Assembly (NCBI GenBank): GCA_000004695.1
Contig: CM000153.2
Location: forward strand, 736,001-800,000
Direction of reading: 5' to 3'
DNA from: Dictyostelium discoideum
Lineage: Eukaryota
Length of the DNA stretch: 64,000 nucleotides
Shown: positions 2,038-61,389 of the stretch, one piece after another
How the letters are laid out: each line of letters starts with the position of its first letter
Position numbering within the stretch: the stretch's first letter is position 1
Notes under the pieces: generated by a model
What the model was told of the DNA's origin: nothing
The model's input: the letters and a program-made list of their open reading frames with translations, nothing else
Database searches by the model: none
Translations under genes and position numbers: made by a program

Positions 2038-6939
<4,902 letters not shown>

Positions 6940-24907: not shown

Positions 24908-26889
24908 TTAACTATTAAAAAATTTAATTATTTCATTATTAATAAAAGTTATTGATTTATTTCTTTTATTTTTTAATTGTAAATTTGAAAAAGTTGTTTT
25001 GTTGTGTAAATATCCTAATGAATGTGTTGGTTGACTTTTAATAAAATCTTTAATATATTTACAATTACCTGTACTAATTACATGATTGATATCATTAATT
25101 GGATTGAAAAGACTAATTAATTTTATTTCAGATTGAAATCCTACCAAAGTGTTATTTGTTATTAAACCATTTCTATATAGATTATAAATAAATTTACGTT
25201 GTTTAAAATTCCTATAAATATCCAAACCAATTGAAATTTCAATTTTTGGTTTTGATTCTTCTAAAGAATTATTATATTCAATTAATTTTTGAATGGAATA
25301 ATAAAATAAATAACCAGATTCCCATTCATTTAATTCAGAGATATTATTTAATGAACCACTAAATCTATAACCAAGTTTTTCATACATAAACTTTGCAACT
25401 TGAATAGTTTCACTATGATTAATTGATGTTTGTTTATTAATTCCTCCAATATTATTATCGTGAATATATTCTATAAAATTTAAATTATTTGATTTTATAA
25501 TTAATTTACTAATTGATTCATGATCCCATATAAAAAGATCTCTATTATTTTCATAAAAATATTTAAAAATATTTTCATTACCAACTAATAAATTACCATT
25601 TAAATATTCTGGTTTTGTTGAAATATTTGAAAAATAATAAGATTTTATTATTAATGCAATTTTTTTGAAATTTTCATTATCGTCACCACTATCACTATCA
25701 CCACCGTCTCCATCACCATTTGTCTTTAGTTTATCTTGTGTATTATTGTTTATTATATGTTTAAAAATTGTTTCTTTAATATTTGTATTATACTTAAATA
25801 AAACATCTAAAAAATTTAATTGCTTTGATATTGGAGTGGTTTTTGGGTTGAAAAATAGATCTTGTGGTAATTTTATTAAATGAGATATAGCTAATCCTCT
25901 ACTATGATCAAAATGATAACCCTCTTTAAATAAATCCTTTATTCTATCAATTATTTGGGAATCTGCATATTTCATTGATACATCAATAATCATTGAACTA
26001 GTTACATCATTATTTATCCATTGACTGTTTATTTCTTCAAATAAATAATTATAATCACCATATTGACAAATAAAATTTAAAATTAATTTTACCCAATCTT
26101 CATTTGTTAATAATACCATATCTTTAACTTTTTTTAAAAATTCAAATAAAAATATTCTTTTTATTTCTCTTTCAAATATAAAATTATTATTATTATTTAA
26201 ATTATTATTAATAAGATTATTTATTTTATTTAAAGTTTCAGAATAGTAAAGTGAATCTGATTTTTGGATTTGTGATAAAAGGTATAATCCATTTTGTAAA
26301 TGATTTAAAAAGGTATTAAATGTTATTAATTGATTATTATGGTGATTATAGGTTATAAACTGAGAACAATTGACAGTTATTGAACTAAATTTATTTGTTA
26401 CTGAATTTTGTTTAAATCTATCTAATAAAGATTCAACCCAACCCATATTATATAACCTTTTAAATAGATTAAACTCTAAAAGTATTAATTTATAATTATT
26501 ATTATCATTAAGTTTTTTTGATTTTGGTGATAATTTTAATTCATCTAATAAATAACTTAATACTTCATTTCTATTTGGTAATTCTAATACATTTGAAATT
26601 AATAGTAACTCTTGTTGTAAATTTTTTTTATTTAAATAATTTTTTTTATTTTTAACAATTTCATTATTAATATATTTTATAATATCCAAATTACCGCATT
26701 TGAATGCTAAATCTAATAATATTGAACTATCTTCAACTATTTCTTGATTAATAATAATATCTTTATGAATTATTTTAACAAATTCTAAATTATTTGTACT
26801 TATAGAGAATGAAAATAATTTATTTTCACCATTCTTTAAAAAAAGTGCTTTTATTTGTTTTTTATTCTTTTGATAAAATTTATTTAAAA

Positions 26890-26962
<73 letters not shown>

Positions 26963-27256
26963 TTTATTTATTAAATGTTGAATAAAAAGTTTTAATTCAT
27001 TTTCTTCAATTTCATTCTCTTCAAATTCTATACCAATTTTAACTTTATCATATAATAGTTCAAAAAAATTATTTTTTATCATCCAACAAAATGTTGCTTC
27101 ATCAAATCTTAATCTTTGTGTATAACTCTTATTTTTAATATTACTATTGGTAATTTGTCGATTTATACCTCTAACGATTTTAAATATTTTTTTTAATAAA
27201 AATATATTATTAAAAACTGATTTATATAATGTATAGATTTTATCACTGCATTCCAT
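24908..27256 (-). CDS. lineage-specific protein family member A (782 aa) with degenerate ankyrin-like repeats; tandem paralogue of next gene
   Basis: single ORF from ATG 27256; shares N-terminal motif ..YKSVFNNIFLLKKIFKIVRGINRQ.TNS, internal (AAT)n poly-Asn, ANK-like A.K.GNL.IIKY motifs and C-terminal ..NEN/MIFKY..N..LF.W...IS..IIKS.NL..IE.IH.N.IG..region with 27555-30074. Confidence 0.75.
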
Positions 27257-27554: not shown

Positions 27555-29178
27555 TTATAATCTTGAGGTTTTAATATTAAAATAATTAATTATAAAGTTA
27601 TTATTTACAGGGAAAGATTTACAAAAATTATCATCAAATATTATTTTTGAATTATTTTCTTTAATGTATTGATTTATATATGATAAATTACCAAATTTTT
27701 TTAAAGATTCTAATGAGTTTAAAGAGTTTAAAAATTCATTTACTTGATTATCACCAATTGAAATGTTATTAAAATTTAATTTCCCATCAATGATTAATTT
27801 TGATAAAAATTTCAATTTTTTATAATCATTTCCTACTTTATTACTTGTGATAATTAATAAATTACTTGAAGAATCTGATTGATTATCTTTAATGATTTTA
27901 TTAATTGCATAATAAAATAAATAATTTGAATTCCAATCATTTAGATTTGAAATATCAATAAGTTGACTATCGAATTTATAACCCAATTTTTCATACATTA
28001 ATTCAGCAACTTGTCTAGTTTTACAATGATTAATTGAAGAATTTAAATCCAATGAACCAATTTCATTATTATGAATAAATTCAATTAATTCTAAATTACT
28101 TGATTTAATTATTGATTCACTAATATTCTTATCATTCCAATCAAATAATTCATAATGATTTTTAAAATAATATTTAAAAATCATTTCATTTCCAGTAAAT
28201 AAATTTGCAGTTAGTTTCGTAGTAGTACTACTACTGGTGGTGGTAGTGCTAGTGGTAGAATTGTAATTTTTAATAATTTCAATAATTTTATTTGCATGGT
28301 CGACAATTGTTAAATCAATAAAATTATCAAATATATTCTTTAAAATGATTTCTTTACATTGGAAATTATATTTGTAAATGGTTTCAATAAATATTAATTG
28401 TTGATTGATATTAACTAATTTTGGATTATAATAATAATTGTTTGTTGATGTGTCATTGTGATGTCTAACATATGATTCATCTAAATAACGTTGAAAATAT
28501 TGTTCATAAAATGTTGGTATAACTTCAATGAAATTTGGGTCACCATGTTGTACAGCTATTTGGATAACCAATGATGAAAACATTTTCTCTGGTGATTTTA
28601 ATTTTACATTTATATCTTCAATCTTTTTAATATTTAATTCATCTTGAATTAAATTATATTCTTGACTTTCTCTTGAATAATTTAATATAATAAGTGTCCA
28701 TTCATCTTGTGAAAATATTAATTCTTTAATTTCTTTTAAAAAATCAATTAAAATAATTCTTTTTAATTGAATTTCAATTTTATTTCCACTAAAATTAATT
28801 TCATCATCATCATCACTATTAATTTCAACAATTGATTTAACTTTATTTGAAATTACTGATTTAATATTTGAAAATAAATTTGTTATTTTAAATTCTGCCT
28901 GTTGTTCATATTTCTCATTTTGCTGGTCTTCTTCTTGTTGTTGGTCTTGTTGTTGTAATAATTTATTTATATTTTTTAAAGGCTGACAATATTTAGATTT
29001 AATAGTTGATAAAAATAAAATTGTATTTTGGAAAAAATTTAAAACATTATTAAATGGAATAAAATCTTTTCCATTATTATAATTTATTAAATATTTTGAA
29101 TAAAGTCTAATTCTTGTGCAAAGTTTACTAATTATTAAATCATGTGAACTTTTATTAATAATAAAATTATTATTATTA

Positions 29179-29213
<35 letters not shown>

Positions 29214-30074
29214 GGTTGGTATTGAAATTAAACCAATTTCAAATAACTTTTTAAATAATGATGATTCTAAATTAAAAAAATCAGTGAATAATGATTTTGG
29301 ATCGTATGGATAATTATCATCTCTTTCCGATTTTATTGGTTTGAAATTAATTTCATTTAATAAATATTTAATTATTTTGTTTTTATTATTAATAGTAGTG
29401 GTTGATGCAATTATATTATTTATTGTTTTCTCTCTGTCAACAAATTCAATACCTAATGTATTATGAACAAATTTAATTATTTCTAAATTTCCATTCTTTA
29501 TTGCACTATCCATTAGAAAGTTAAATGGGTTATTCGTTTTTTCAAGTTTAAATTCTTTATTTATAAACTCTTGTTGATATATTATTTCAATAAAATCCAA
29601 ATTTTGTGAATCTACTGCAAATTTTAAAATTCCATCTATCGAAGCCAATTCTTTAATTAATTTTTTATTTGTTTCATAAAATGTATTTAAAATTTCTTTT
29701 GTAATAATTAATGATGGTGTTGATGTTGGTGTTGGTGTTGGTGTTGGTGATGTTGATGATGTTGATGATGTTGATGTTAATGTTAAAAATAATGAAATGT
29801 TTGGTAACGTGAAATCATCATTTTCTTCTTTAAATTGTTTACCAATTTTGATTTTATCTTTTAATAATTGAAAATGAGCATTTTTAACCATCCAAATAAA
29901 TGTTGCTTCATTGTATCTACATCTTTGTGTGAATGATTTATTTTCTATCATACTATTTGTAAATTGTCTGTTTATACCTCTAACAAATTTATAAATCTTT
30001 TTACATAAATAAATATCATTAAATACTAATTTATATAATTTATAAATGTCAAATCTATGAGAACTAACAACCAT
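27555..30074 (-). CDS. lineage-specific protein family member B (839 aa), paralogue of 24908-27256
   Basis: single ORF from ATG 30074; colinear similarity to upstream paralogue at N-terminus, middle and C-terminus; PT-rich linker; poly-Asn. Confidence 0.75.
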
Positions 30075-39936: not shown

Positions 39937-40430
39937 TTAATGAATCAATTCCAATTTTCTTTTCTTCAAAAATAAATCATCATTTAGATTTGAAGATGAA
40001 GAAGTTGGACTTGTTAAAGTTGAGGAAGAATTACTATTACTATTACTATTATATAAACTGATTGGAGGTAATAAAATACTTCTTGAACTATTATTTTGAT
40101 TATTATTATTCGTGTTCGTATTATTGCTATTATTATTATTATTATTTTGGTTATTATTTTGATTATTATTATTTTGATTATTATTTTCATTAAAAATGAG
40201 AGGTGGTAAAGATTTTGATTTTTGTTGGCTATTTGGTGATGTTTGTAAAGTATTTGTATTGGTTGATGAAAATGGTGGAGTTCTTGGTGATGTCATTGGT
40301 GAGGTATCTTCTGGTGATGAGCAAAATAATTTTGAAGCATTATGTAAAGAGAGTAAAGCTTGTGTTGCTTGAGTCGAATCAAATGCTGGTACTTGTTGAC
40401 ATTTGCTTGGTGGTGATCCAATTGGAGACA

Positions 40431-40506
<76 letters not shown>

Positions 40507-41013
40507 TGTATTATTATTGTTTGTATTATTATTATTATTATTATTGTTGTTGTTGTTGCTATTATTATTATTATTGCTACTGTTATTATTATTATTATTA
40601 TTAGATAAATGTGAACTATAATTATTATAATGATTATGATTTTCTTGAGTTTGGGATGGTTTTATTGATAAAATTGGTTTATTTATATGTTGACTGCTAT
40701 TAAATTGAGAATTATTATTATTATTATTACTATTTAATTTCAAATTATTGTGATTATAATGATTATTGTGTCCATTTATATTATTACTGTTATTATAGTT
40801 ATTATGGTTATTATTATGATTATTATTATTATTATTACTATTATTATTATATTGATGGTGGTGATGATGATGATTATGGTGATTGTATCCTAATAATTCT
40901 GGTGTCGATGATGGTGATTTATGATCCTCTTCTTCAGAGTGTGATGCTGTATCGCCACCAATATAGTCATCATTAAAGTCACCTTTTTCTTTTTTATTAA
41001 ATATTTTATCATA
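39937..41013 (-). CDS. MEF2-type MADS-box factor exon 2: His/Asn/Ser-rich low-complexity activation region
   Basis: 122-nt intron 41014-41135 (GTATGT...CATATAG); frame open from 41013 to stop at 39937; total 447 codons; the M of ORF 39937-40743 is a TTG inside this exon. Confidence 0.7.
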
Positions 41014-41057
41014 CTATATGGAAAATTAAAAGTTAATTAGTATTCCAAATTATTTTT

Positions 41058-41104
<47 letters not shown>

Positions 41105-41135
41105 TTTTTTTTTAGATTTTTTTTTTTTTACATAC

Positions 41136-41399
41136 GTCATGGTCAGTAAACTTTTGGGAAATTTCTGGACCCAAATCTGGAATTGATTCCATTGGTGATG
41201 GTAAACCAGAACTAATATATTGGAAATATTTCTCTTTGGCATTTGGTGAATTATTTACAATGACAAGAGAAACTGTAGAGTCACAGAGTAATGCCAATTC
41301 CATTGCCTTTTTAATTAAGCCATTCTTTCTTTTGTTGAATGTAACTTGACGATTTCTTTCGTCTGGAATTCTTTGGATCTTAATTTTCTTTCTACCCAT
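41136..41399 (-). CDS. MEF2-type MADS-box transcription factor exon 1 (MADS box + MEF2 domain)
   Basis: [57 protein letters not shown] is near-identical to metazoan MEF2 MADS/MEF2 domains; exon ends GAC CAT GAC + GTATGT donor (41135-41130). Confidence 0.85.
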
Positions 41400-41592
41400 T
41401 TTAATTTATTAATTGTTTTGATTATTTGGTTGATTGATTTGATTTGATTGATATATGGAAAAAAAGTGTGAATAAATAAATAAAATATTATTTCACTATT
41501 ATTATTATTTGTAGATGATTAGTAAATTTTTTATTTAAATTATATATAAAATAAATGAATAAATAAAAAATTAAAAAATTAAAAAAAAACCC

Positions 41593-41623
<31 letters not shown>

Positions 41624-41712
41624 AGTTAAAATTAAAATTAAAATTAAAAAAAACAATTTTTTAAAAGTTTTAATTAAAAAAATTTAAAAAAAAATTTTTT
41701 TTTTAAAATGGG

Positions 41713-41745
<33 letters not shown>

Positions 41746-42732
41746 TGAAGTGGCAAAGGAAAAAAAAATGAAAAAAAAATGAAAAAAAAAATAAAAAAAA
41801 TAAAAAAAAAGATAAATTTGGAAATCAGACAAGATTGTAAATAAAGAGGATGTGTGGTGTGTGTGTGTGTTTGTGTTTTTAAAGGGAGGCTTAATATAAT
41901 AATTACCTTTTTTTAAAATAAAGATGAAAATGAAATTTCTATAGTTGGTTCAAATGTTGTCTTTACTGGAATTAAATTAATCTACTAATTAAATATAGAT
42001 TTTACTATTATTAATTTTTTTTTTTTTTTAAAAATTTTTTTTTTTTTTTTTTTTTAAGATTTAAAATTAAAAAAAAAAAAATAAATAAAATTTTAAAGAA
42101 AAAAAAAAATAAATGTTAAATTTGTACAAAGATACTAAAAAATTTAAAAGAATTAAATATAATTAATTAATAAATAAATAATTATTTAATTGAAAAAAAA
42201 TAAAAAAAAACAAAAAAAGATAAAATTTAAAAATATATTTGTGTTTTGAAAAAAAAAAAAAAAAATAAAAAAAGAAAAAAATTTTATTTTATTTAGAAAA
42301 CAAAAATAACAAAAATAGAAAATGCCTTGAAATTAAATTTTTTTTTTTATAAAAAAAAATAAAAATAAAAAAAAAAAAAATAAAAAAAAAATAAAAAAAA
42401 TAAAAAATCCAATTTGATAAAAATCGCGACATCCTTATTATTTAGAAGGTCTACTGTTTTTTTTTTTTATGAAGATTATGTGGCCAGGAATTTTAAAAAT
42501 TGGTTTATTTTGGGAACTGTTTTGATAACATTATGATGTGCTGGTGGTGAATTTTTTTTTTATTTTTTTTTTTTTTTGTTTTGCCTGTACATTTTCTATA
42601 AATAAACCAAAAAAAAAAAAAAATAAAATAAAATAAAAAAAATAAAATTTTTAACTTAAACAGAAAAAAAATTAAAAAAAAAAAAAAAAAAGTTATGATT
42701 TATGTGTTACAATTATTTTTTGCAAAAATTTA

Positions 42733-42764
<32 letters not shown>

Positions 42765-43197
42765 GTTTATAAAAAATAATTATTGTAATTGTTATATTAT
42801 TGGAAAAAAAAAAAAATAATAAAAAAAATAAAAATATAAAAACCAAAAAAAAAAAAAAAAAAATAAAAATCCAATTTTTTTAAAAAAGCAACGTTGGGGA
42901 TAATTTTAAATAAGGTTGTAACAAAAATATTTAGAGTCTTTTCATCACATTTGTGGTGGGTTACAAGTGATATAAATAAACAAATAACGAAGGATTTTTT
43001 TTTTTTTAAAAAAAAAAAAAGTTATATAAATAAAAAAATATGGTTATATGTTTAAAAAAAAAAAAAAAAAAAAAAAAATTTAAAAAAAATAAAAATACTT
43101 TTTTTTTTATTTTGACTGTTTTTTGATTTTGATTTAGGGATATTTTTTGGGAAAATGTTCGGAAACAAAATTTATAAATAGTTTTTGGGTGAGAGAG

Positions 43198-43230
<33 letters not shown>

Positions 43231-43279
43231 TTAAAATAAAAAAAAATGGTTTTTAAAAAAAAAAAATTTTTTTTTAAAC

Positions 43280-43331
<52 letters not shown>

Positions 43332-46300
43332 TTAGTTTATGAAAATAAAAAATAAAAAATAAATGAAATTTAAAAAAAAAAAAAAAACCAGCAACAAATT
43401 AAATTTTCATATTAAAGTACGCTGTAGAAGATATGTTGTTAAAGGCTGTGGGCGTTCTTTTTTTTTTTTTTTTTTTTTTTTATTTTTAATCTATTTGATT
43501 ATGCACAGGGTAAAAAGGTATGAAGATTAAAAGAAAAAAAAAAAAAAAAAAAAAAATTAAAAATAAAAATAAAAACACTCAACAAAAAAAAATCCAAAAA
43601 ACACAAATTTATTTTTATACACAGAGTACTGATAAAGTTTGGAAAAAAAAAAAAAAAAAAAATATTTTTTGCCAGTAAAATTTAAAAAAAGTTGTTTTTT
43701 GATGGTGAATTAAATTGTCATATGATTGTAAGGGTTGACACCATAATTTAATATTAAAAATAGATTTGTACCAGATTTATGTGAAAATTAAAAATCAAAA
43801 ATAAAAAAAAAAATAAAAAAAAATAAAAATAAAAATTCTATAATTATTTTTTTTTTTTTTTTTTTGATATTTTGAAATGGGGAAAATGGTGCGGTAAAGG
43901 TGTGATGTTATAGTAAAATTCGAGAGTGTGTTCTTATTTTTTTTTATTTTTTTTTTTTTTTGTATAACGACAAGTATAAAGGTTACAACAAAAATTTAAA
44001 AATAATTTTTTTTTTTGAAAATTTAAAAATAAATTATTTTTTTTAATGAAAAATGGCGAATCAATTTCGCAACATTGCGAACTGTTGGGACACCCAAAAA
44101 TTACTCTTTTTTTTTATTTTTTTTTTTTTATTTTTTATAAATATAGAAATTATGGTATTATCTTTTTTTTTTTTTTTTATTTCTTCTTACCTCTTTTTTT
44201 TATTTTTTTATTTTTTTTTTTAAAAAAAATTAATTTATTGAGTAAAATATTTTTTTTATTTTTTTTTTTATTATTGGAATATTTTGGCTTTTATAAAAAT
44301 TATTTTTAAAATAAATTTTTTTTTTTTTTTTTTTAAATTTAACAAAATAATAAAATTAAAATATATATTTTAATAAATTTTTTAATTTTATTTATTTAAA
44401 AAAGTAATTTTTTTTTCTTTTTGGGTTATTAAATAAAAAAATAAAATAAAAATTTTTTATTTATATATATATTTATATATATAAGTATAAATATAAATAA
44501 GTTTTTTTAATTTTTTTTTAATTTTTTTTATTAATTAAATTTAAAATATTTTTGTTTTATATAATTATTATTTAGTTCGAATATTGACAATAATAAATAA
44601 CACGAAGATTCGATTAGAGATATAATTGTGTAGTGAGTTTGTATGGGTTGAAATTTTATTGCTTGGAATTTGAAAAAGAACAATTAAAACACATAATGGT
44701 GCAATTATTATTATTTTTTCATTTTATTGAAAAAAAAAAATAAAAAAAAAAAACAATGTGAATAAATAATAAAAGTGTTTTTAAAATAGATTATTATATT
44801 TTTTTTTTTTTTTTATAAAATTTTAAAATATGATAAAAAAAATAAAATCATCATTTCTATTGTTATTTATTTTTTTTTTTTAAAAAAAAAATAGATTAAA
44901 AGGGGTGTGGGAATTGGGGTTTATTTATTTTTTTTTATTTTTTTTATTTTTATAATTATTATTATTTTTAAAAAATGTGGTTTTCCATTGTAATAATTAC
45001 TATTTTTTAAAAATAATGTAATGATAGCGATAAAATAAATAAAAAAATAAATAAATAGATTAAAAATAATAAAAATAAAACTAATAAATAATTTTTAAAA
45101 TTTTTTTTTAAAAAAAATAAAATAAAATAAAATAACTTGAATATGAAAAAACAATAAAAATAAAAATAATACTAATACTAATATTAATTAATTTTCCAAG
45201 GACGAATTAATTAAAAAAACAAAAAAAAAAAAAGTGTTGTTTTTTTTATATTACCTTTTTTTTTTAATATTTTTATTAAAATAAATTATTAAATCTATTT
45301 ATAAAAATATTTGTATTGGTTACTAGCAATGAGATTTGATTAAATATTAATTTCGATTTTTTAATTTTATTATAATTAAATTTATTTATTAATTTATTAT
45401 TATTATTATTATTATTATTCAAAAATGAAATATAATTTTTTAAAAAAAAAAAAAAAAAAATTAAAAGTTTATTTTTTTTTTTTTTTAATTAATGATTTTA
45501 TTTTTAAATTTTTTAAATTTTTTATTTTTTTTAAAATTAGATTTATTTATATTTTTAATAATTAAAAAAAAAAAAAAAAAAGAAGATGGTATTTGTTCTT
45601 TTTTTTTTTTTATTGAAAAAGAGAAAAAAAAAAAAAACAAAAATTTAAATTTATACGGATTTAAAAATAATATTTTAATAAAAAAAAAAAAAAAATTTAT
45701 TTTTATTTTTAATTATTGTGTTATTATGATGAATCTAGGTGTTTTGATGATTGCTCTAAAAAAAAAAAAAAAAAAATATTTATTTATTTTTTATTTTTTT
45801 TTATTTTTTTTTTTGTAACTTTTGATTTTGGAGAGAGAGTCTTTTAAGTTAGAGCGGTGTTATACTGTCATTTGTTGATAGGGGACCTCGCGAAACCTTC
45901 TAAAAAAAAAAAAATTGTTGTGAGTATTGTTTTTGTCACCCAATAGATTAAATGATCCATAATGGGAATTGATAATGAATGATGTTGTGTGAGCTTGTCA
46001 AAAATAAAATTATTTTAATTTATAAAAATAAAAATAAAAATAAAAAAAAAATACTTTTCGAACGAATGTTGTCATTTTTCGAATTTAAATAAAAATTATG
46101 CCAATAATTTTTAAAAAGGAAATTAGGTTTTCCTTTTTTAGACTCTTGATTTTTTATTTTATTTTTATTTATTTTTTTTTACCCATTACATTATACCAAA
46201 ATTTCTTTTTGATGATATCATTTTTTTTTAAATTTATTTATTAAATTAATTTTATTTAATATTATTTTAAATTTTTTTTTTTTATTTTTTTTTTTTCAAA

Positions 46301-48775: not shown

Positions 48776-49262
48776 ATTCACACAAATACACAAATACAAA
48801 TATTCGCACTGTTTACCACATTCACACGCTCACACACCCTTCCCTCATATAAAAATAAAGTACAATGTAAAACCGACACATTCTTTCATAAAAAAAGATT
48901 ATTACTAAAAAAAAAAAAATAAGATATATAAATTTGATTTTCTTTTTTTTTTTATTTTTTTAAATCTAAATGAATCATGGCGTTCAAAGAGAGTTGCCTT
49001 AGAATTCATACCCTCTATTATTCAAATTATTTTAAAATAACTTGTGTGGAGAGATTACACAATACCCTAAAAAAGAATTAATTTAGTTGTAATTAAATTT
49101 TTAAATAATTAAAATTAAAATATATTTTTAGACATTATTATTAATTATTTTATTATTATTTTTTATTTTTAAAATAAAAAAAAAAAAAAAAAAAAAAAAA
49201 CTATAAATATAATCAATAATTGTTATTAATTTCAAACAATTATTTATATATTTATAAAAAAA

Positions 49263-49335
49263 ATGATTATCAATAAACTTTGTATCATTTTTATTTTTTT
49301 AACAGCTTTAATATTCCAGGCGCATTCTTTAAGTG
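49263..49335 (+). CDS. secreted Cys-rich modular repeat protein, exon 1 (signal peptide MIINKLCIIFIFLTALIFQAHSLS)
   Basis: ATG 49263; donor G|GTAATT at 49336. Confidence 0.7.
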
Positions 49336-49431
49336 GTAATTATTATTATTATTTTTATTATTATTATTATTATTATTATTTTTATTTATATTATTATTTT
49401 TATTAACATATATTTTTTATTTTTTATATAG

Positions 49432-50088
49432 ATATAGATTGTGAAGCTTTAGATGAAAATTCATGTAAGGGTAATAATGAATGTCTTTATTTACCATTTG
49501 TTGGATGTTGCGGCGAGAGTAAATTCTATTGCGTAAAGAATCAAGGAAACTGTTTTGACAATCGTTTATCTTGTGGTAGAAATATAAATACTGGTAAAAT
49601 TTTCGAATTTTGGTCAGTATGTAAACCACAAAAGGATTTCAAAGATTTTTCACCATCCAATCAAACATGTGACTCTTTAAAATGTGAAGAAAAAGGTTTC
49701 ACTTGTAAATGGATTGAACCAAATTGTTACGGTACATCATGTTGTACTCGTGAACCAAAATGTTTTGATCAAGATGATAACATAGTAGATCCACAAAAAC
49801 AACAAAAACAACAACAATGTGCATGTCAACCAAATAATGGTAATGGTAATAATGGTAACAATGGTAACAATGGTAACAATGGTAACAATGGTAATAATGG
49901 TAACAATGGTAACAATGGTAACAATGGTAACAATGGTAACAATGGTAATAATGGTAATAATGGTAATAATGGTAACAATGGTAATAATGGTAACAATGGT
50001 AATAATGGTAACAATGGTAATAATGGTAACAATGGTAATAATGGTAGCAATGGTAATAATGGTAACAATGGTAACAATAATAACCAAT
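49432..50088 (+). CDS. same gene exon 2: diverged fused A+B Cys modules then (GGT AAC AAT)n Gly/Asn tract
   Basis: acceptor TTTTATATAG (AG 49430-49431; alternative AG 49436-49437 keeps frame); ..DCEALDENSCKGNNECLYLPFVGCCGESKFYCVKNQGNCFDNRLSCG..; donor CAA T + GTAAGT 50089. Confidence 0.7.
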
Positions 50089-50169
50089 GTAAGTGTTTTT
50101 ATTAAATTATAATATTTTAAAATTAGAAAATTATAATTAATAATTATTAAATTTTTTTTTTTTAAAAAG

Positions 50170-50406
50170 TTGATTGTGAAAATGTTGAAAATCAAGATCA
50201 ATGTCAATCAAATTATCCAAAATGTAAATGGTTATCATATCCAGGATGTTGTGGTGACCAAATTTCAAGATGTGTAAATGATCCAAATAATAATTGCTAT
50301 GATAATCAACTCTCATGTGCAACTCATGTTGAAACCAATAAAATATATGAAATCTGGAGTACTTGTAAACCACAAAAAGGATTCAAGCAATATTTCCCAT
50401 CAAATG
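50170..50406 (+). CDS. same gene exon 3: module A copy 1 (DCENVENQDQCQSNYPKCKWLSYPGCCGDQISRCVNDPNNNCYDNQLSCATHVETNKIYEIWSTCKPQKGFKQYFPSN)
   Basis: acceptor AAAAAG 50169; donor AAT G + GTAAGT 50407. Confidence 0.75.
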
Positions 50407-50475
50407 GTAAGTAAAAGAATTTCATTATTCTTTAAATACCCAAATTAAAATTAATTTTTTTTTTTCTTCTAATAG

Positions 50476-50796
50476 TTACATCTTGTTCACAACTTGATTG
50501 TGAAAGTAAAGGTATGGATTGTGCATGGTCAACAGATAATAAATGTTTGAGCACCCATTGCTGTCAAAATACACCAAAGTGTGTTCCAAAGAATGATAAT
50601 AATGGAAACGGAAATAATGTTAATAATAATAATAATAATAATGGAAATAATAATAATAACAATAACGGTAATGGTAACAATAATAATGGTAATAATAACA
50701 ATAATGGTAATGGTAATAACAATGGTAATAATGGTAATAATGGAAATAATAATAATAATAATAATAACCATGGTGGTAATGGAAATAATGGTAACG
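50476..50796 (+). CDS. same gene exon 4: module B copy 1 (TSCSQLDCESKGMDCAWSTDNKCLSTHCCQNTPKCVPKN + N/G tract)
   Basis: acceptor TCTAATAG 50475; donor AAC G + GTAAGT 50797. Confidence 0.75.
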
Positions 50797-50854
50797 GTAA
50801 GTTTTTCTAAAAATTTATTAAAAAAGGGGTAGTGTATATCTTTTATTAATAGTT

Positions 50855-50885
<31 letters not shown>

Positions 50886-50900
50886 TATCTATTTTAATAG

Positions 50901-51137
50901 TTGATTGTGAAAATGTTACAAATCAAGATCAATGTCAATCAAATTATCCAAAATGTAAATGGTTAACATATCCAGGATGTTGTGGTGACCAAATTTCAAG
51001 ATGTGTAAATGATCCAAATAATAATTGCTATGATAATCAACTCTCATGTGCAACTCATGTTGAAACCAATAAAATATATGAAATCTGGAGTACTTGTAAA
51101 CCACAAAAAGGATTCAAACAATATTTCCCACCAAACA
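50901..51137 (+). CDS. same gene exon 5: module A copy 2
   Basis: acceptor TTTTAATAG 50900; near-identical to exon 3; donor AAC A + GTAAGT 51138. Confidence 0.75.
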
Positions 51138-51215
51138 GTAAGTAATAAATTATATTAACCCTTTTAAATAATTTTGTTAATGATTTTATAAATAATATTT
51201 AATTTTTTATTATAG

Positions 51216-51584
51216 TGACTTCATGTTCTCAACTTGATTGTGAAAGTAAAGGTATGGATTGCAAATTATCCCAAGATGATGGTTGTTTAAATACTCATTG
51301 TTGTCAAAAAACATTGAGATGTGTGCCAAAGAATAACGGTAATGGTAACAATGGTAATAATGGTAATGGTAACAATGGTAATAACGGTAATACTGGTAAT
51401 AATGGTAATAACGGTAGCAATGGTAATAATGGTCAATCAACTGGTGGAATGGTTACAACTAGTGGAATGGCTACAACTGGCGGAATGGCTACAAATGGTG
51501 GATCTTCAGTATCATCAAGTGGTAATAATGGTAATAATGGTAACAATGGTAATGGAAATAATGGTAATAACAACAATAACCAAA
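51216..51584 (+). CDS. same gene exon 6: module B copy 2 (+ GN tract and GGMVTTSGMATTGGMATNGG insert)
   Basis: acceptor TTATTATAG 51215; donor CAA A + GTAAGT 51585. Confidence 0.75.
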
Positions 51585-51675
51585 GTAAGTATTTAATTGT
51601 TGATAGTCAATAATTTAAATTAATTTAAATGTTTTAAAAATAATAATAATAAAAATAAAAAATCTATTTTAGTAG

Positions 51676-51912
51676 TTGATTGTGAAAATGTTACAAATCA
51701 AGATCATTGTCAATTAAATTATCCAAAATGTAAATGGTTAACATATCCAGGATGTTGTGGTGACCAAATTTCAAGATGTGTAAATGATCCAAATAATAAT
51801 TGTTATGATAATCAACTCTCATGTGCAACTCATGTTGAAACCAATAAAATATATGAAATCTGGAGTACTTGTAAACCACAAAAAGGATTCAAGCAATATT
51901 TCCCACCAAACA
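51676..51912 (+). CDS. same gene exon 7: module A copy 3
   Basis: acceptor TTTTAGTAG (AG 51674-51675; alternative AG 51671-51672 also in frame); donor AAC A + GTAAGT 51913. Confidence 0.7.
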
Positions 51913-51989
51913 GTAAGTAAAAAAATTATATTAACCATCTTAAATAATATTGTTAATGATTTTATTAATAATATTTAATTTTATTATAG

Positions 51990-54130
51990 TTACATCATGT
52001 TCTCAACTTGATTGTGAAAGTAAAGGTATGGATTGCAAATTATCCCAAGATGATGGTTGTTTAAATACTCATTGTTGTCAAAAAACATTGAGATGTGTGC
52101 CAAAGAATAACGGTAATGGTAATAATGGCAATGGTAATACTGGTAATAATGGTAATACTGGTAATAATGGTAATACTGGTAATAATGGTAATACTGGTAA
52201 TACTGGTAATAATGGTAATACTGGTAATAATGGTAATACTGGTAATAACGGTAATACTGGTAATACTGGTAATACTGGTAATGGTAATAATGGTAATACA
52301 GGCAACAATGGTAATACTGGTAATGGTAATACCGGTAATACTGGCAACAATGGAAATGGAGGAAGCACAAGTTCGCCAGAACCAGCATTAGCAACAATTA
52401 CAATTGCAACAGGTGGCAATAACCATCAATCTACAGGTGGAACAGGTACAATAGGTGGATCTGCTTCAACATCAACATCATCAGGCGGTAATACCGGACA
52501 TAATGGTAATACTGGTAATAATGGTAATACAGGCAATAATGGAAACGGAGGCAGCACAAGTTCACCAGAACCAGCATTGGCAACAATTACAATTGCAACT
52601 GGCGGTAATAACCATCAATCTACAAGTGGAGCAGGTACAACTGGTGGATCTGCTTCAACATCAACCTCATCAGGCGGTAATAATGGTAATAATGGAAATG
52701 GAGGCAGCACAAGCTCACCAACCCCAGCATTAGCAACAATTACAATTGCAACTAGCGGTAATAACCATCAATCTACAGGTGGGGCTGGTACAACTGGTGG
52801 ATCTGCTTCTACATCAACAGCATCAAGTGGTAATGGTAATAATGGAAATGGAAACAATGGTAGCACCGGACATAATGGTACTAATGGAAACGGAGGCAGC
52901 ACAAGTTCACCTACCCCAGCATTAGCAACAATCACAATCGCAACTAGTGGTAATAACCATCAATCTACAGGTGGAACAGGTACAACTGGTGGATCTGCTT
53001 CAACATCAACATCAAGTGGTAATACCGGAAATGGAAACAATGGTAATAATGGTAATACTGGCAATAATGGTAATAATGGAAATGGAGGCAGCACAAGTTC
53101 ACCAGAACCAGCATTAGCAACAATTACAATTGCAACTAGTGGTAATAACCATCAATCTACAGGTGGAACAGGTACAACAGGTGGATCAGCTTCAACATCA
53201 ACATCAAATGGTAATAATGGAAATGGAAACAATGGTAATACCGGTAATAATGGTAATACCAGTAATAATGGTAATACCGGTAATAATGGAAATGGAGGTA
53301 GCACAAGTTCACCAGAGCCAGCATTAGCAACAATTACAATTGCAACTAGTGGTAATAACCATCAATCTACAGGTGGAACAGGTACAACTGGTGGATCTGC
53401 TTCAATATCCTCTTCATCTTCAGGTTCCTCATCTTCAGGTTCTTCAACTTCAGGTTCTTCATCTTCAGGTTCTTCAACTTCAGGTTCTTCAACTTCAGGT
53501 TCTTCAACTTCAGGTTCTTCAACTTCAGGTTCTTCCTCATCAAATAATGGTGGAAGTGGTACTGGAGATAATGAACCAAAATTTGCCTCAATTACAATTT
53601 TAACTAGTGGACATCATACTAGTGGGTCAAGTACAACTGGTGGATCAGCCACATCTTCAACAACCACATCTTCAACATCACATAGTAATACTGGATCAGT
53701 ACATGGAAATAAACGTAGTGCATATGGTGCAGGTTGGGGATCAGGTCCAAACTTTTCAGCAACCAATGTAGATAACGTTATGGAAATGCAAAATGGTGGA
53801 AATGAAGTAAATGAAAACAATGAATACTTTGAAGCACAAAATGGACAAACCAATGAAAACAATCAAAATTATAATCAAAACAATGAGAATTACAACACAA
53901 ACAGAGATTGGTTATCACAACAACAAGGTTATTGGTATACTAGATCCTCACCAGACGGTTCATTAGAAATTCATATTCCAGAAAACTATAATGACTATGA
54001 AAGACAAATATTTGACCAATCTGGTAGTATAGGTCGTTCTCGTGAGAATTCTTATGATGATACCCCTAAAAATCCATATAGTGGTCCATATGGTGATAAC
54101 TCTTCTCAATCTAAAGCAACCACAAATTAA
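51990..54130 (+). CDS. same gene exon 8: module B copy 3, long (GNNGNT)n tract, six ~60-aa perfect repeats (GGSTSSPEPALATITIATSGNNHQSTGGTGTTGGSASTSTSS..), (SSGS)n tract and unique Tyr/Asn-rich C-terminus
   Basis: acceptor TTATTATAG 51989; ORF open to TAA 54128-54130; sum of the 8 exons = 4272 nt = 1424 codons exactly, which supports the phase assignments. Confidence 0.75.
52360..53400 (+). repeat. six tandem ~190-bp (60-63 codon) near-perfect coding repeats
   Basis: repeated GGSTSSPEPALATITIATSGNNHQSTGGTGTTGGSASTSTSSG units; antisense and out-of-frame ORFs in this interval are artefacts. Confidence 0.85.
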
Positions 54131-58802: not shown

Positions 58803-59906
58803 ATGTCAACCAAAACAAAAAGTGAACCAAACGAATCTCAGCCAACGAAAACAACAGAGATTACACCAACAAATACAACTACTACAGCAACAACTAAAGC
58901 AAGTAGATTAAAAGCATCAAAAGCAGCTGCTGCCGCCGCCGCAGCAGCAGCAGCAGCGGCAGCATCATTGGTATCTTCACCAACAAATACAACAAGTACA
59001 CCAACTCCAACACCAACACCATCACCAACACCATCACCATCACTAACACCAACACCATCACCATCACCAACTCTACCTATTAACAACAACAACAACAACA
59101 ACAATATCAATACACTTAATAAACCACATATACCCTATTCAAATAATTTTAATAGTTATCATAATGGTAATACGGCATATAATAATCCAAGTTTAAATAG
59201 TAATACTACTAGTTTCCCACCACACCCTAATTACCCCTCACCATATTATTACCCTAATCACCCACCACATCCTACTTATCACCATCCTGCGACATCATCA
59301 ACATCAACATCAAACCTAAGTCATAGTAATTCATATAACATAAATCCACCAACGAAAAGACCATATGATAGTATAAATTATACATATTCCAGTAACACAG
59401 CCAATAGTGCGTATGGACATCACCCGCCACCACCACCACCATCATCTTCTTCTTCATCTTCATCATCTTCTTCATCTTCATCCTCATCATCATCTTCTTC
59501 AATGATTAGCGACCCAATAAATGATCATGAAAAAAAGAAAATAAAAAAAATGAAATCGGGACCATTGTTAATAGCAGAAGAGGATTTTATAGCAAATGCG
59601 TTTAGGAATGTTCCAGATAAAGCATTAACACCAGAATTGAGAAGAATAAAGAGGAAATTTATAGTTAGGAAGCAACAAAGATTTTGTGCCATTGATAATT
59701 TTAATATCGATGATAAAGTTTATCAAGGTTTTAGTAAAATAAAGAAAAAAGAACAAAAATTAAATTTATACTATGAAAGAGAAGAAATACCAAGTTTTCA
59801 ACCTAAAACTTTACAACAACAATTATCAGTATTACCAAGTTCTACAACTAGTGCAGTTGCAGCTACAATATCAAATATTAATAATACTTTAAATACCACT
59901 ACTACC

Positions 59907-60005
<99 letters not shown>

Positions 60006-61311
60006 AACAACACTACTACTACAACAACTACAACCACTACTACACCACCACCTATTGTAAATAACACAAACACAAATGCAAATATAAATAATAATAATAA
60101 TAATAATATATCATCAGGAGGAGGAGGAGGGAGGCAAACAGCCCCGATCAACTCAACCAATCAAATAGTTAATACGGTAACATGTACAGTTAAACCACCA
60201 ATTATTCCAACCACAAAAACTATTGATCCACCAAGTTTAATGTCACCATTAATTGCTGCAACATTAGAGCAAGAACGATTAGATGCAGAAAATTTAGAAA
60301 AAGAAAGAAAAAAAAAAGAAAAATTTGAAAAAGAGAGATTAGAAAAAGAGAAATTAGAAAAAGAAAGATTAGAAAAAGAGAAATTAGAAAAAGAAAAGGA
60401 AAGATTATTATTATTAGAGAAAGAAAAAGAAAAAGAAAAAGAACGTTTAGAAAAAGAGAGACAAAGACAAGAAAGAAGAGAAAGAAAAGAAAAAGAACGT
60501 TTAGAAAAAGAGATATTAGAAAGGCAACAACAATTAGAAAATGAAAGATTAGAAAGAGAGAGGCAACAACAACAACAACAACAAATAGAAAATGAACGTT
60601 TAGAGAAATTAGAAAATCAAAGATTAGAGAATGAACGTTTAGAGAAATTAGAAAAGGAAAGATTAGAAAGAGAACGTTTAGAAAAGGAAAGAATTGAAAA
60701 AGAGAGACAAGAACGTCTAGAAAAGGAGAGATTACATAGAGAATCTAAAGAAAAAGAGAGAAGGGAAAAAATTAAACAAGAGAAAATTAGAACTGAGAAA
60801 ATTAAACAAGAGAAATTAAAACAAGAGAATGAAATACTAGAGAAATTAAAATCTGAACCAAATCAACAAACTGCATTATATAAATATTATCATTGGGTAA
60901 AATCATCATCATCATCAAATAATAATAGTAATAATAGTAATCAAAATAATAATAATAATAATAAACCAAAAAGACCATTTCAACCATTAAAAGAATTATT
61001 ATATGGAAGAAGGCAGTTGTTAGATCCTTATGTTAGTCCTCATACTACTAGAGAGTTAAAACCATTCATTCGTAGGGATTATGAATCGTGTCCTCCGAAA
61101 TTACAACAATTACGTGAACTTTATCAATTCTTTAAAATCAATGGTTTAATGCCACCAAAGACTTCACCAACAATTGTATCAATTTATGAATCATCTTCTT
61201 CAACTTCCTCTTCACAAGAAATTTATCCAATTGATTATAAATATTTAACACCAGAATTAGCTGATAGAACAAATCAATTCCTTTGTGATCATTTTTGGCC
61301 TGGTATAAATG
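58803..61311 (+). CDS. GNAT-domain protein exon 1: Ala/Thr/Pro/Ser/Asn/Gln-rich N-terminal region, ~190-aa E/R/K-rich predicted single alpha helix, conserved C-terminal region
   Basis: ATG 58803; (CAA)n polyQ 59903-60005; EKERLEKEKLEKERL.. block 60290-60850; exon ends AAT G + GTAAGT 61312. Confidence 0.7.
59903..60005 (+). repeat. (CAA)n ~33 units coding poly-Gln/Asn
   Basis: perfect trinucleotide run. Confidence 0.9.
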
Positions 61312-61389
61312 GTAAGTACTTTTTAATTATAAATTATAAATTATAATTATAAATTATTTTTTTTTATTTTGGCTAATTGATTTTTTTTT

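Follow-up and report, generated by a model that had tools for sequence, protein, structure and literature searches.

The stretch of DNA considered here, called the window below, comprises 64,000 nucleotides of the Dictyostelium discoideum genome (GenBank assembly GCA_000004695.1, contig CM000153.2, positions 736,001 to 800,000 of the forward strand), and positions refer to it unless stated otherwise. The region 49263-54130 (+) holds a single functional gene of Dictyostelium (D. discoideum group), composed of eight exons. Its predicted product is a secreted protein of 1423 residues, which consists of a signal peptide, four Cys-rich DSCP-N domains joined by Gly/Asn linkers, six mucin-like cores, a Ser tract and a hydrophilic tail.

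The eight exons were rebuilt from the sequence, the last one running from 51990 to 54130. All seven introns are bounded by GT and AG, six of their seven donors reading GTAAGT, and the joined exons (4272 nucleotides) form 1423 codons and a TAA stop in one open frame extending over 4.9 kb. The introns are short (69-104 nucleotides) and very poor in G+C (3-16%, versus 22-40% in the exon-bearing kilobases). Each of them contains stops in all three frames, and read-through would end after 2-23 codons. No alternative arrangement of open reading frames (ORFs) spanning 49263-54130 was found. An earlier annotation of the window, made from the sequence alone (the first-pass annotation), had already proposed a single spliced gene for a secreted Cys-rich protein, with eight exons summing to 1424 codons. 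The same exons are obtained here (1423 residues plus the stop, GT..AG at all junctions), with an intact frame, an N-terminal signal peptide and Cys-rich domains.

All seven introns are in phase 1. The lengths of exons 3 to 7 are multiples of three nucleotides (237, 321, 237, 369 and 237), and the cassette exons are symmetrical (phase 1-1). Tandem acceptors are seen before exon 7 (TAG/TAG at 51670-51675) and before exon 2 (ATATAG/ATATAG at 49426-49437); whichever acceptor is chosen, the frame is kept and the product differs by one or two residues. Downstream of exon 2, which encodes the first domain (D1), three units made of an A exon, an intron and a B exon follow one another, as expected from the tandem amplification of a two-exon cassette that had been proposed earlier. 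The features of the gene are the following.

49263-49335 (+): exon 1, start codon and signal peptide (MIINKLCIIFIFLTALIFQAHS/LS), ending in phase 1 (hydropathy, gene model)
49432-50088 (+): exon 2, uninterrupted D1-type Dicty_spore_N domain 1 (about 49432-49784), then QQCACQ and a (GGT AAY AAT)n Gly/Asn linker (PF04562 match, Tandem Repeats Finder)
50170-50406 (+): exon 3, A half (nine Cys) of domain 2, cassette 1; 237 nucleotides, phase 1-1 (gene model; synonymous divergence, dS, of 0.05 versus the other A exons)
50476-50796 (+): exon 4, B half (seven Cys) of domain 2 and Asn/Gly linker, cassette 1; old, ancestral-like B (dS and non-synonymous divergence, dN; comparison with D. purpureum)
50886-51340 (+): young duplicated block, copy 1, with about 15 nucleotides of upstream intron, exon A, the A/B intron and the Cys part of exon B (partner 51661-52105, about 97% identity)
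50901-51137 (+): exon 5, A half of domain 3, cassette 2 (gene model, alignment)
51216-51584 (+): exon 6, B half of domain 3 and Gly/Asn linker with a (GGMxTT)-type insert, cassette 2 (gene model, repeats, alignment)
51676-51912 (+): exon 7, A half of domain 4, cassette 3 (gene model, alignment)
51990-52109 (+): start of exon 8, B half of domain 4, cassette 3 (98% identical to the B of cassette 2)
52110-52357 (+): Gly-Asn-Thr linker of 9- and 27-nucleotide microsatellite units (repeat analysis, gene model)
52358-53416 (+): six copies of a 41-residue core with variable Gly/Asn/Thr linkers (repeat analysis, tblastn self-matches)
53411-53535 (+): Ser-rich tract (SSTSG)n, 8.3 copies of 15 nucleotides (repeat analysis)
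53573-53680 (+): degenerate seventh core copy (EPKFASITILTSGHHTSGSSTTGGSATSS...) (weak tblastn self-matches, reading of the translation)
53681-54130 (+): hydrophilic, Cys-free, Asn/Ser-rich C-terminal tail and TAA stop at 54128-54130 (gene model, composition)

Four spore coat domains and a repetitive C-terminal part

Modules A (nine Cys) and B (seven Cys), which the first-pass annotation treated as separate modules, together make up, once spliced, one full-length PF04562 domain, Dicty_spore_N (“Dictyostelium spore coat protein, N terminus”; DSCP-N). The A+B product of cassette 1 matches this family over profile positions 1-114 of 115 (122.9 bits, E 1.4e-35) and D1 matches it with 109.5 bits (E 2e-31), the curated gathering score being 22.3 bits. 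Among the families guessed initially, the dictyostelid spore-coat Cys-repeat one is thus the right one, whereas the follistatin/EGF-like one finds no echo, as no Pfam family besides PF04562 matches the protein at E <= 1.

A local hidden Markov model (HMM) locates four tandem domains at residues 25-141, 243-364, 429-550 and 631-752 (D1 to D4), with 16 Cys in each. In an alignment of 16 domains of the family, 15 positions of this 16-Cys pattern, which includes two CC pairs in about 115 residues, are invariant and the remaining one is nearly invariant. D1 begins 2-3 residues past the predicted cleavage site of the signal peptide. The other three domains are internal, and the same HMM places the second domain of four relatives internally as well. 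The AlphaFold2 model of D1 reaches a pLDDT (predicted local distance difference test) of 92.

An N-x-T sequon straddles the A/B intron of every cassette (PSN-V-TS, PPN-M-TS and PPN-I-TS at the junctions 50400-50482, 51131-51222 and 51906-51996), the phase-1 intron splitting its middle codon. Its Asn and Thr are kept in most or nearly all of the 16 aligned domains. Another pattern, C-x-x-L-x(n)-C-x5-6-C-x-W/Y, is common to the first half of A and to B (49434-49550 versus 49668-49784, and the same parts of each cassette). Comparison of the N-terminal half of A with B by hhalign gives P = 0.0011 and a probability of 20%, which is too weak to claim an internal repeat; it is a weak hint that the DSCP-N domain itself may stem from an internal duplication.

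The signal peptide is the sole strongly hydrophobic 19-mer of the protein (Kyte-Doolittle 2.18; maximum 0.78 elsewhere), and hydropathy reveals no membrane anchor in it. Cys residues are confined to the signal peptide, the four domains and C154/C156, which belong to the short QQCACQ motif located after D1. The protein also harbours 13 N-x-S/T sequons and long Ser/Thr tracts.

The linker that follows D1 is encoded by a 9-nucleotide unit (AATGGTAAC) repeated 26 times with a 92% match (49842-50078), leading to (GNN)n. Tracts of the (GGTAAY)n type, which resemble this array, come after every cassette. Such tracts are probably prone to slippage and might act as substrates for unequal recombination.

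The last exon carries repeats of another kind. Six cores of 123 nucleotides, starting at 52358, 52547, 52700, 52892, 53084 and 53294, encode GGSTSSPEPALATITIATSGNNHQSTGGTGTTGGSASTSTS and share 86-94% nucleotide identity; their spacing varies from 153 to 210 nucleotides due to the unequal lengths of the Gly/Asn/Thr linkers. This core-repeat region is a putative mucin-like O-glycosylation region. The six repeats and the Ser/Gly tracts described initially are therefore found, as six cores with this spacing and an array of 8.3 copies of 15 nucleotides. The perfect repeats of 60 residues reported together with them have to be relocated: the longest perfect repeat reaches 65 residues but lies between A copies 2 and 3 (residues 444-508 identical to 646-710), while the longest one inside the last exon has 42 residues. 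Residues 835-1228 are mainly Gly, Thr, Ser and Asn, and contain a 47-residue tract with 33 Ser. The C-terminal tail has no match in Pfam and no significant similarity to the tail of the D. purpureum ortholog.

Relatives and intron history

An exhaustive phmmer search with D1 against 1.84 billion representative proteins yielded 13 matches, and all of the ten whose source was looked up are dictyostelid. Among them are SP70/cotB, the “probable spore coat protein DDB_G0283555”, the “spore coat protein D1/D2” of Acytostelium and some uncharacterised “DSCP-N domain-containing proteins”. The weakest of the 13, which matches in five short stretches at E 6.4e-4, seems to be spurious. SP96/cotA and SP60/cotC are presumably Dicty_spore_N relatives too, judging from the name of the Pfam family and from general knowledge. 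The relatives carry the DSCP-N domain in homologous positions. None of the relatives found carries more than two DSCP-N domains, and the array described here is the largest within the protein library searched.

The best match is DICPUDRAFT_99881 from D. purpureum (XP_003294188, 569 residues, “DSCP-N domain-containing protein”). Its locus is syntenic with the window, both having in common the gene upstream, the Yip1 gene downstream and the FF/WW gene. Its exon map reads signal peptide, D1, spacer, A exon of 79 codons, then B with a Ser-rich tail. As in D. discoideum, the signal-peptide exon ends in phase 1, the D2-type domain is split at the same site and it is followed by a Ser-rich low-complexity region and a hydrophilic tail; the D1-type domains are 56% identical and the D2-type ones 58-60%. 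However, DICPUDRAFT_99881 has one D2-type cassette instead of three, a His/Asn-rich spacer instead of a Gly/Asn one and none of the 41-residue core repeats. It also has a 59-nucleotide intron (GTAAAT…ATAG, with in-frame stops) inside module B of D1, between CYG and TSCC. This intron (positions 6474-6532 of the D. purpureum contig L001), absent from exon 2 of the D. discoideum gene, is a lineage-specific gain or loss.

The phase-1 A/B intron is also present in another D. purpureum gene, DICPUDRAFT_79155 (547 residues), and in the second domain of DFA_10066 (624 residues) from Cavenderia fasciculata. Like the gene of the window, both encode a D2-type domain split by this intron and Thr-rich mucin-like regions, and neither shows a clear array of follistatin/EGF-like repeats; DFA_10066 furthermore has the two-domain layout D1 + D2. 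In neither of them is the cassette amplified. A phase-1 intron directly precedes the A exon in both D. purpureum genes but not in Cavenderia, where no intron is found ahead of the second domain.

SP70/cotB and DDB_G0283555 are related in another way. Both carry a 16-Cys Dicty_spore_N domain directly after the signal peptide (41-46% identity to D1). DDB_G0283555 has an intron right after the signal peptide, as here, and SP70 a Ser/Thr-rich mucin-like region with a STIA-type motif. However, their single DSCP-N domain is followed by many follistatin/EGF-like Cys repeats. Furthermore, the coat roles of SP70, SP96, SP60 and DDB_G0283555 are documented, whereas that of the gene described here is predicted. 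Together with its D. purpureum and Cavenderia relatives, this gene defines a subgroup of the spore coat family devoid of follistatin-like repeats.

In a tree of the domains, D2, D3 and D4 group together in 200 of 200 bootstraps and are sister to the second domain of D. purpureum in 151, while D1 joins the first domain of D. purpureum in 153 of 200. Taken with the sharing of introns and with the layout of the D. purpureum gene, this shows that the split D2-type domain is old and that its amplification from one to three copies is specific to the lineage of the window. The A/B intron is an ancient feature of the D2-type domain. Exon 2, initially viewed as an older fusion of A and B, is instead an anciently separate D1-type paralogue, its closest relative being domain 1 of the D. 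purpureum ortholog.

In a large protein index, neither the spliced protein nor D2, exon 8 or the exon of the neighbouring Yip1 gene retrieved any dictyostelid protein, all matches being low-complexity collagen-like or distant Yip1 proteins. The 26- to 35-mers of exon A had no match in metagenome or prokaryote-genome collections, and no paper describing this gene was found in the literature. Two public records related to the family are probable annotation errors: a Heterostelium album protein of 144 residues, made of DSCP-N only, is named “Phosphatidylinositol 3-kinase 3”, and a record of 1108 residues, which looks like a merged gene model, joins a truncated DSCP-N to a MutS-like mismatch-repair protein.

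Uneven divergence of the three cassettes

Any two of the three A exons, each exactly 237 nucleotides long, are 96-98% identical. In cassettes 2 and 3 the likeness goes well beyond this exon: over about 450 bp, from about 15 nucleotides upstream of the A acceptor to the start of the linker, they are about 97% identical, the A/B intron being included (z = 10.9 versus shuffles), and the Cys part of B reaches 98% identity. In contrast, the Cys part of the B exon of cassette 1 shares only 76-78% identity with B2 and B3. The A/B intron of cassette 1 is no closer to the others than shuffled sequence (z = 1.5), and neither is its upstream intron (z = 1.4 and -0.2). More generally, the introns upstream of the A exons are unlike or weakly alike between cassettes (z from -0.2 to 3.9). 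The near-identity of exons and introns announced by the first-pass annotation thus holds for cassettes 2 and 3 but, for cassette 1, only for exon A.

The divergence estimates (Nei-Gojobori) lead to the same picture. The dS is 0.05 in every pair of A exons and between B2 and B3, whereas B1 differs from B2 and B3 by a dS of 1.1-1.3 and a dN of 0.158, computed on 39 codons. By comparison, the dS of any A exon is about 1.1 versus the A exon of D. purpureum and about 1.5 versus D1. Between cassettes 1 and 2, 6 of 234 nucleotides differ in exon A and 27 of 117 in exon B (Fisher p = 2.4e-9). The divergence is therefore sharply discordant along cassette 1, as in gene conversion between tandem repeats. 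The duplications can be called very recent, as proposed initially, for cassettes 2 and 3 but not for cassette 1; the other possibility that had been mentioned, homogenisation, fits exon A of cassette 1 better, since a dS of 0.05 lies there beside an old B.

B1 is also closer to the B of D. purpureum (68% nucleotide identity, versus 61% for B2 and B3) and keeps the conserved Trp of the family (CAWS) after the third Cys of module B, where B2 and B3 have Leu. At this place, B2 and B3 read C-K-L-S (51263-51271 and 52037-52045), while cassette 1 and nearly all relatives have C-x-W/Y. The dN/dS ratio of about 0.12 between B1 and B2 indicates that both versions of B are under purifying selection, which thus persists although both young domains have lost the conserved aromatic residue.

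The simplest history that these comparisons suggest would include an old duplication, separating cassette 1 from the ancestor of cassettes 2 and 3, a recent duplication giving rise to cassettes 2 and 3, and a recent conversion tract covering essentially exon A only. A second short conversion tract may cover the first 46 nucleotides or so of exon B. The ancestral gene would have encoded one D1-type and one D2-type domain, as is still the case at the syntenic locus of D. purpureum, and its D2-type domain would already have been split by a phase-1 intron at the conserved N-x-T sequon, with another phase-1 intron ahead of it. Since phase-1 introns on both sides make each half a symmetrical exon, a duplication of the cassette leaves the frame intact. 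The old and the recent duplication could then both have come from unequal recombination between the (GGT AAY)n tracts flanking every cassette, and the later conversion tract limited to exon A would have homogenised cassette 1 with cassettes 2 and 3.

According to the phase-compatibility rule (Patthy), modules of animal extracellular-matrix proteins are duplicated through symmetrical phase 1-1 exons. The likeness to this system lies in domain exons bounded by phase-1 introns, in a frame that is kept and in a secreted, Cys-rich, modular protein. However, each exon carries here half a domain, the duplications are only intragenic and the host is an amoebozoan. No copy of the cassette was found elsewhere in the 64-kb window, all of them being in tandem in one gene. 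The initial description of the locus as “exon shuffling in action” was therefore overstated: the exons are phase-compatible, but they were duplicated within a gene, with no transfer between genes.

It could be argued that the three cassettes result from a very recent tandem amplification, are of about equal age and do not require any gene conversion. This would account for the 96-98% identity of all pairs of A exons and for the perfect repeat of 65 residues. However, cassette 1 differs from the two others at 26-27 of 117 in-frame nucleotides in B but at just 6-8 of 234 in A (Fisher p 2e-9 and 7e-8), and both its A/B intron and its upstream intron behave like shuffled sequence (z of 1.5, 1.4 and -0.2), making equal ages quite improbable. 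Instead of conversion, a very strong selection including synonymous sites (for example on an embedded RNA or DNA element) could keep the A exons nearly identical; indeed, the identity stops near the exon borders, and an A+T-rich codon usage narrows the synonymous choice. Yet the dS of about 1.1 with the D. purpureum ortholog and about 1.5 with D1 indicates that synonymous sites are free to change, and the conservation of the intron between cassettes 2 and 3 points to recent common ancestry. Such a selection is therefore hardly credible.

The many microsatellite-like (GGTAAY)n tracts and the near-identical 450-bp blocks of this region might also have led to mis-assembly, by expansion or collapse, of one or several cassettes or of the repeats of the last exon. 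This seems very improbable, as the cassettes are told apart by diagnostic substitutions, by the sequence and length of their linkers and by their introns, the frame and all splice sites are intact over 4.9 kb, and the D1 + split-D2 layout is encountered independently in D. purpureum. Lastly, the variation could lie in the transcripts, the skipping of phase 1-1 exons giving in-frame isoforms with one to four domains. The phase of all seven introns, the lengths of exons 3 to 7, all multiples of three nucleotides, and the tandem TAG/TAG acceptor at 51670-51675 would allow it. However, the loss of a single A or B exon would break a 16-Cys domain, and alternative splicing is rare in Dictyostelium; isoforms of this kind are thus unlikely.

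Surroundings, putative role and significance

The G+C content of the window is about 22%, and its long ORFs encode proteins rich in poly-Asn and poly-Gln. A trehalase, a UBR-type ligase, an ABC transporter and an FF/WW protein are among the ORF products, and the locus is syntenic with a D. purpureum contig. Neighbouring genes comprise several exons, and the one that contains the ORF 58803-61346 has a 3' intron. Two adjacent ORFs of the same strand, 24908-27256 (-) and 27555-30074 (-), encode proteins of 782 and 839 residues with clearly related N-termini (…YKLYKSVFNNIFLLKKIFKIVRGINRQITNS… versus …YKLYKLVFNDIYLCKKIYKFVRGINRQFTNS…) and without any Pfam match; they appear to be two tandem genes belonging to a family not yet described. 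An array of about 140 (TAT) copies occupies 40431-40850 and is followed, within the region 40000-46000, by about 5 kb of very low G+C (12-19%), with a strongly positive GC skew (0.28-0.44) and no long ORF.

Upstream of the gene, a C/A-rich island (…TTCACACGCTCACACACCCTTCCCTC…) is found at 48778-48850 (+), about 430 bp before the ATG, in surroundings of about 85-90% A+T. It holds the only exact CACACACCC of the 64-kb window. In D. purpureum, the upstream region (contig L001) has only loosely similar C-rich patches, at about 5240-5280 and 5560-5590. The island resembles the GBF/CAE-type (CAE/G-box) elements of the cot gene promoters and may be a developmental promoter element of this type, which is a lead only.

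The membership of the family and the composition of the protein suggest that it most likely serves in a developmental extracellular matrix, where it would be a multivalent, disulfide-rich, heavily O- and N-glycosylated component with a structural or cross-linking role, the most likely site being the prespore-vesicle/spore-coat system. The core PALATITIATSG resembles a peptide of SP70, …PSTIAASTIATTTASTR, that was mapped as O-fucosylated (PMC11507795); this resemblance is a lead only. The four DSCP-N domains could confer more binding valency than the one or two domains of the relatives, and such a natural concatemer of four domains could serve as a reagent in binding studies.

Several points weigh against this interpretation as a whole. 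Splicing, stage of expression and location are inferred. The protein has none of the follistatin/EGF-like Cys repeats that characterize SP70-type coat proteins, as judged from Pfam and from the positions of its Cys. No solved structural relative of the predicted DSCP-N fold was found, and the binding valency is for this reason a matter of conjecture. As to the history of the cassettes, the dS of the B exons rests on 39 codons only, and concerted evolution, instead of the order of the duplications, could account in part for the monophyly of D2 to D4. Nevertheless, one functional gene with this architecture, this history of duplication and conversion and a matrix or spore-coat function is the best explanation as a whole, and it can be held with good confidence.

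Length polymorphism between strains is plausible. It could further be imagined that the array is still evolving, the numbers of cassettes, core repeats and linkers varying between wild isolates, and that conversion and unequal crossing-over produce alleles of differing valency, to which in-frame exon skipping would perhaps add. This proposal is speculative and rather doubtful. If it were true, the gene would be a naturally variable determinant of the properties of the spore coat or matrix, and a tractable system for studying the growth of domain arrays through phase-1 exons outside animals.

The family to which the gene belongs is known, and its mode of growth is fairly ordinary; it will not surprise specialists and does not overturn current understanding. 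The gene is nevertheless a clean and datable non-animal case of a secreted modular protein that would have grown by in-frame duplication of exons bounded by phase-1 introns on both sides, in which an old duplication, a recent duplication and a conversion tract would all be legible within 2 kb.

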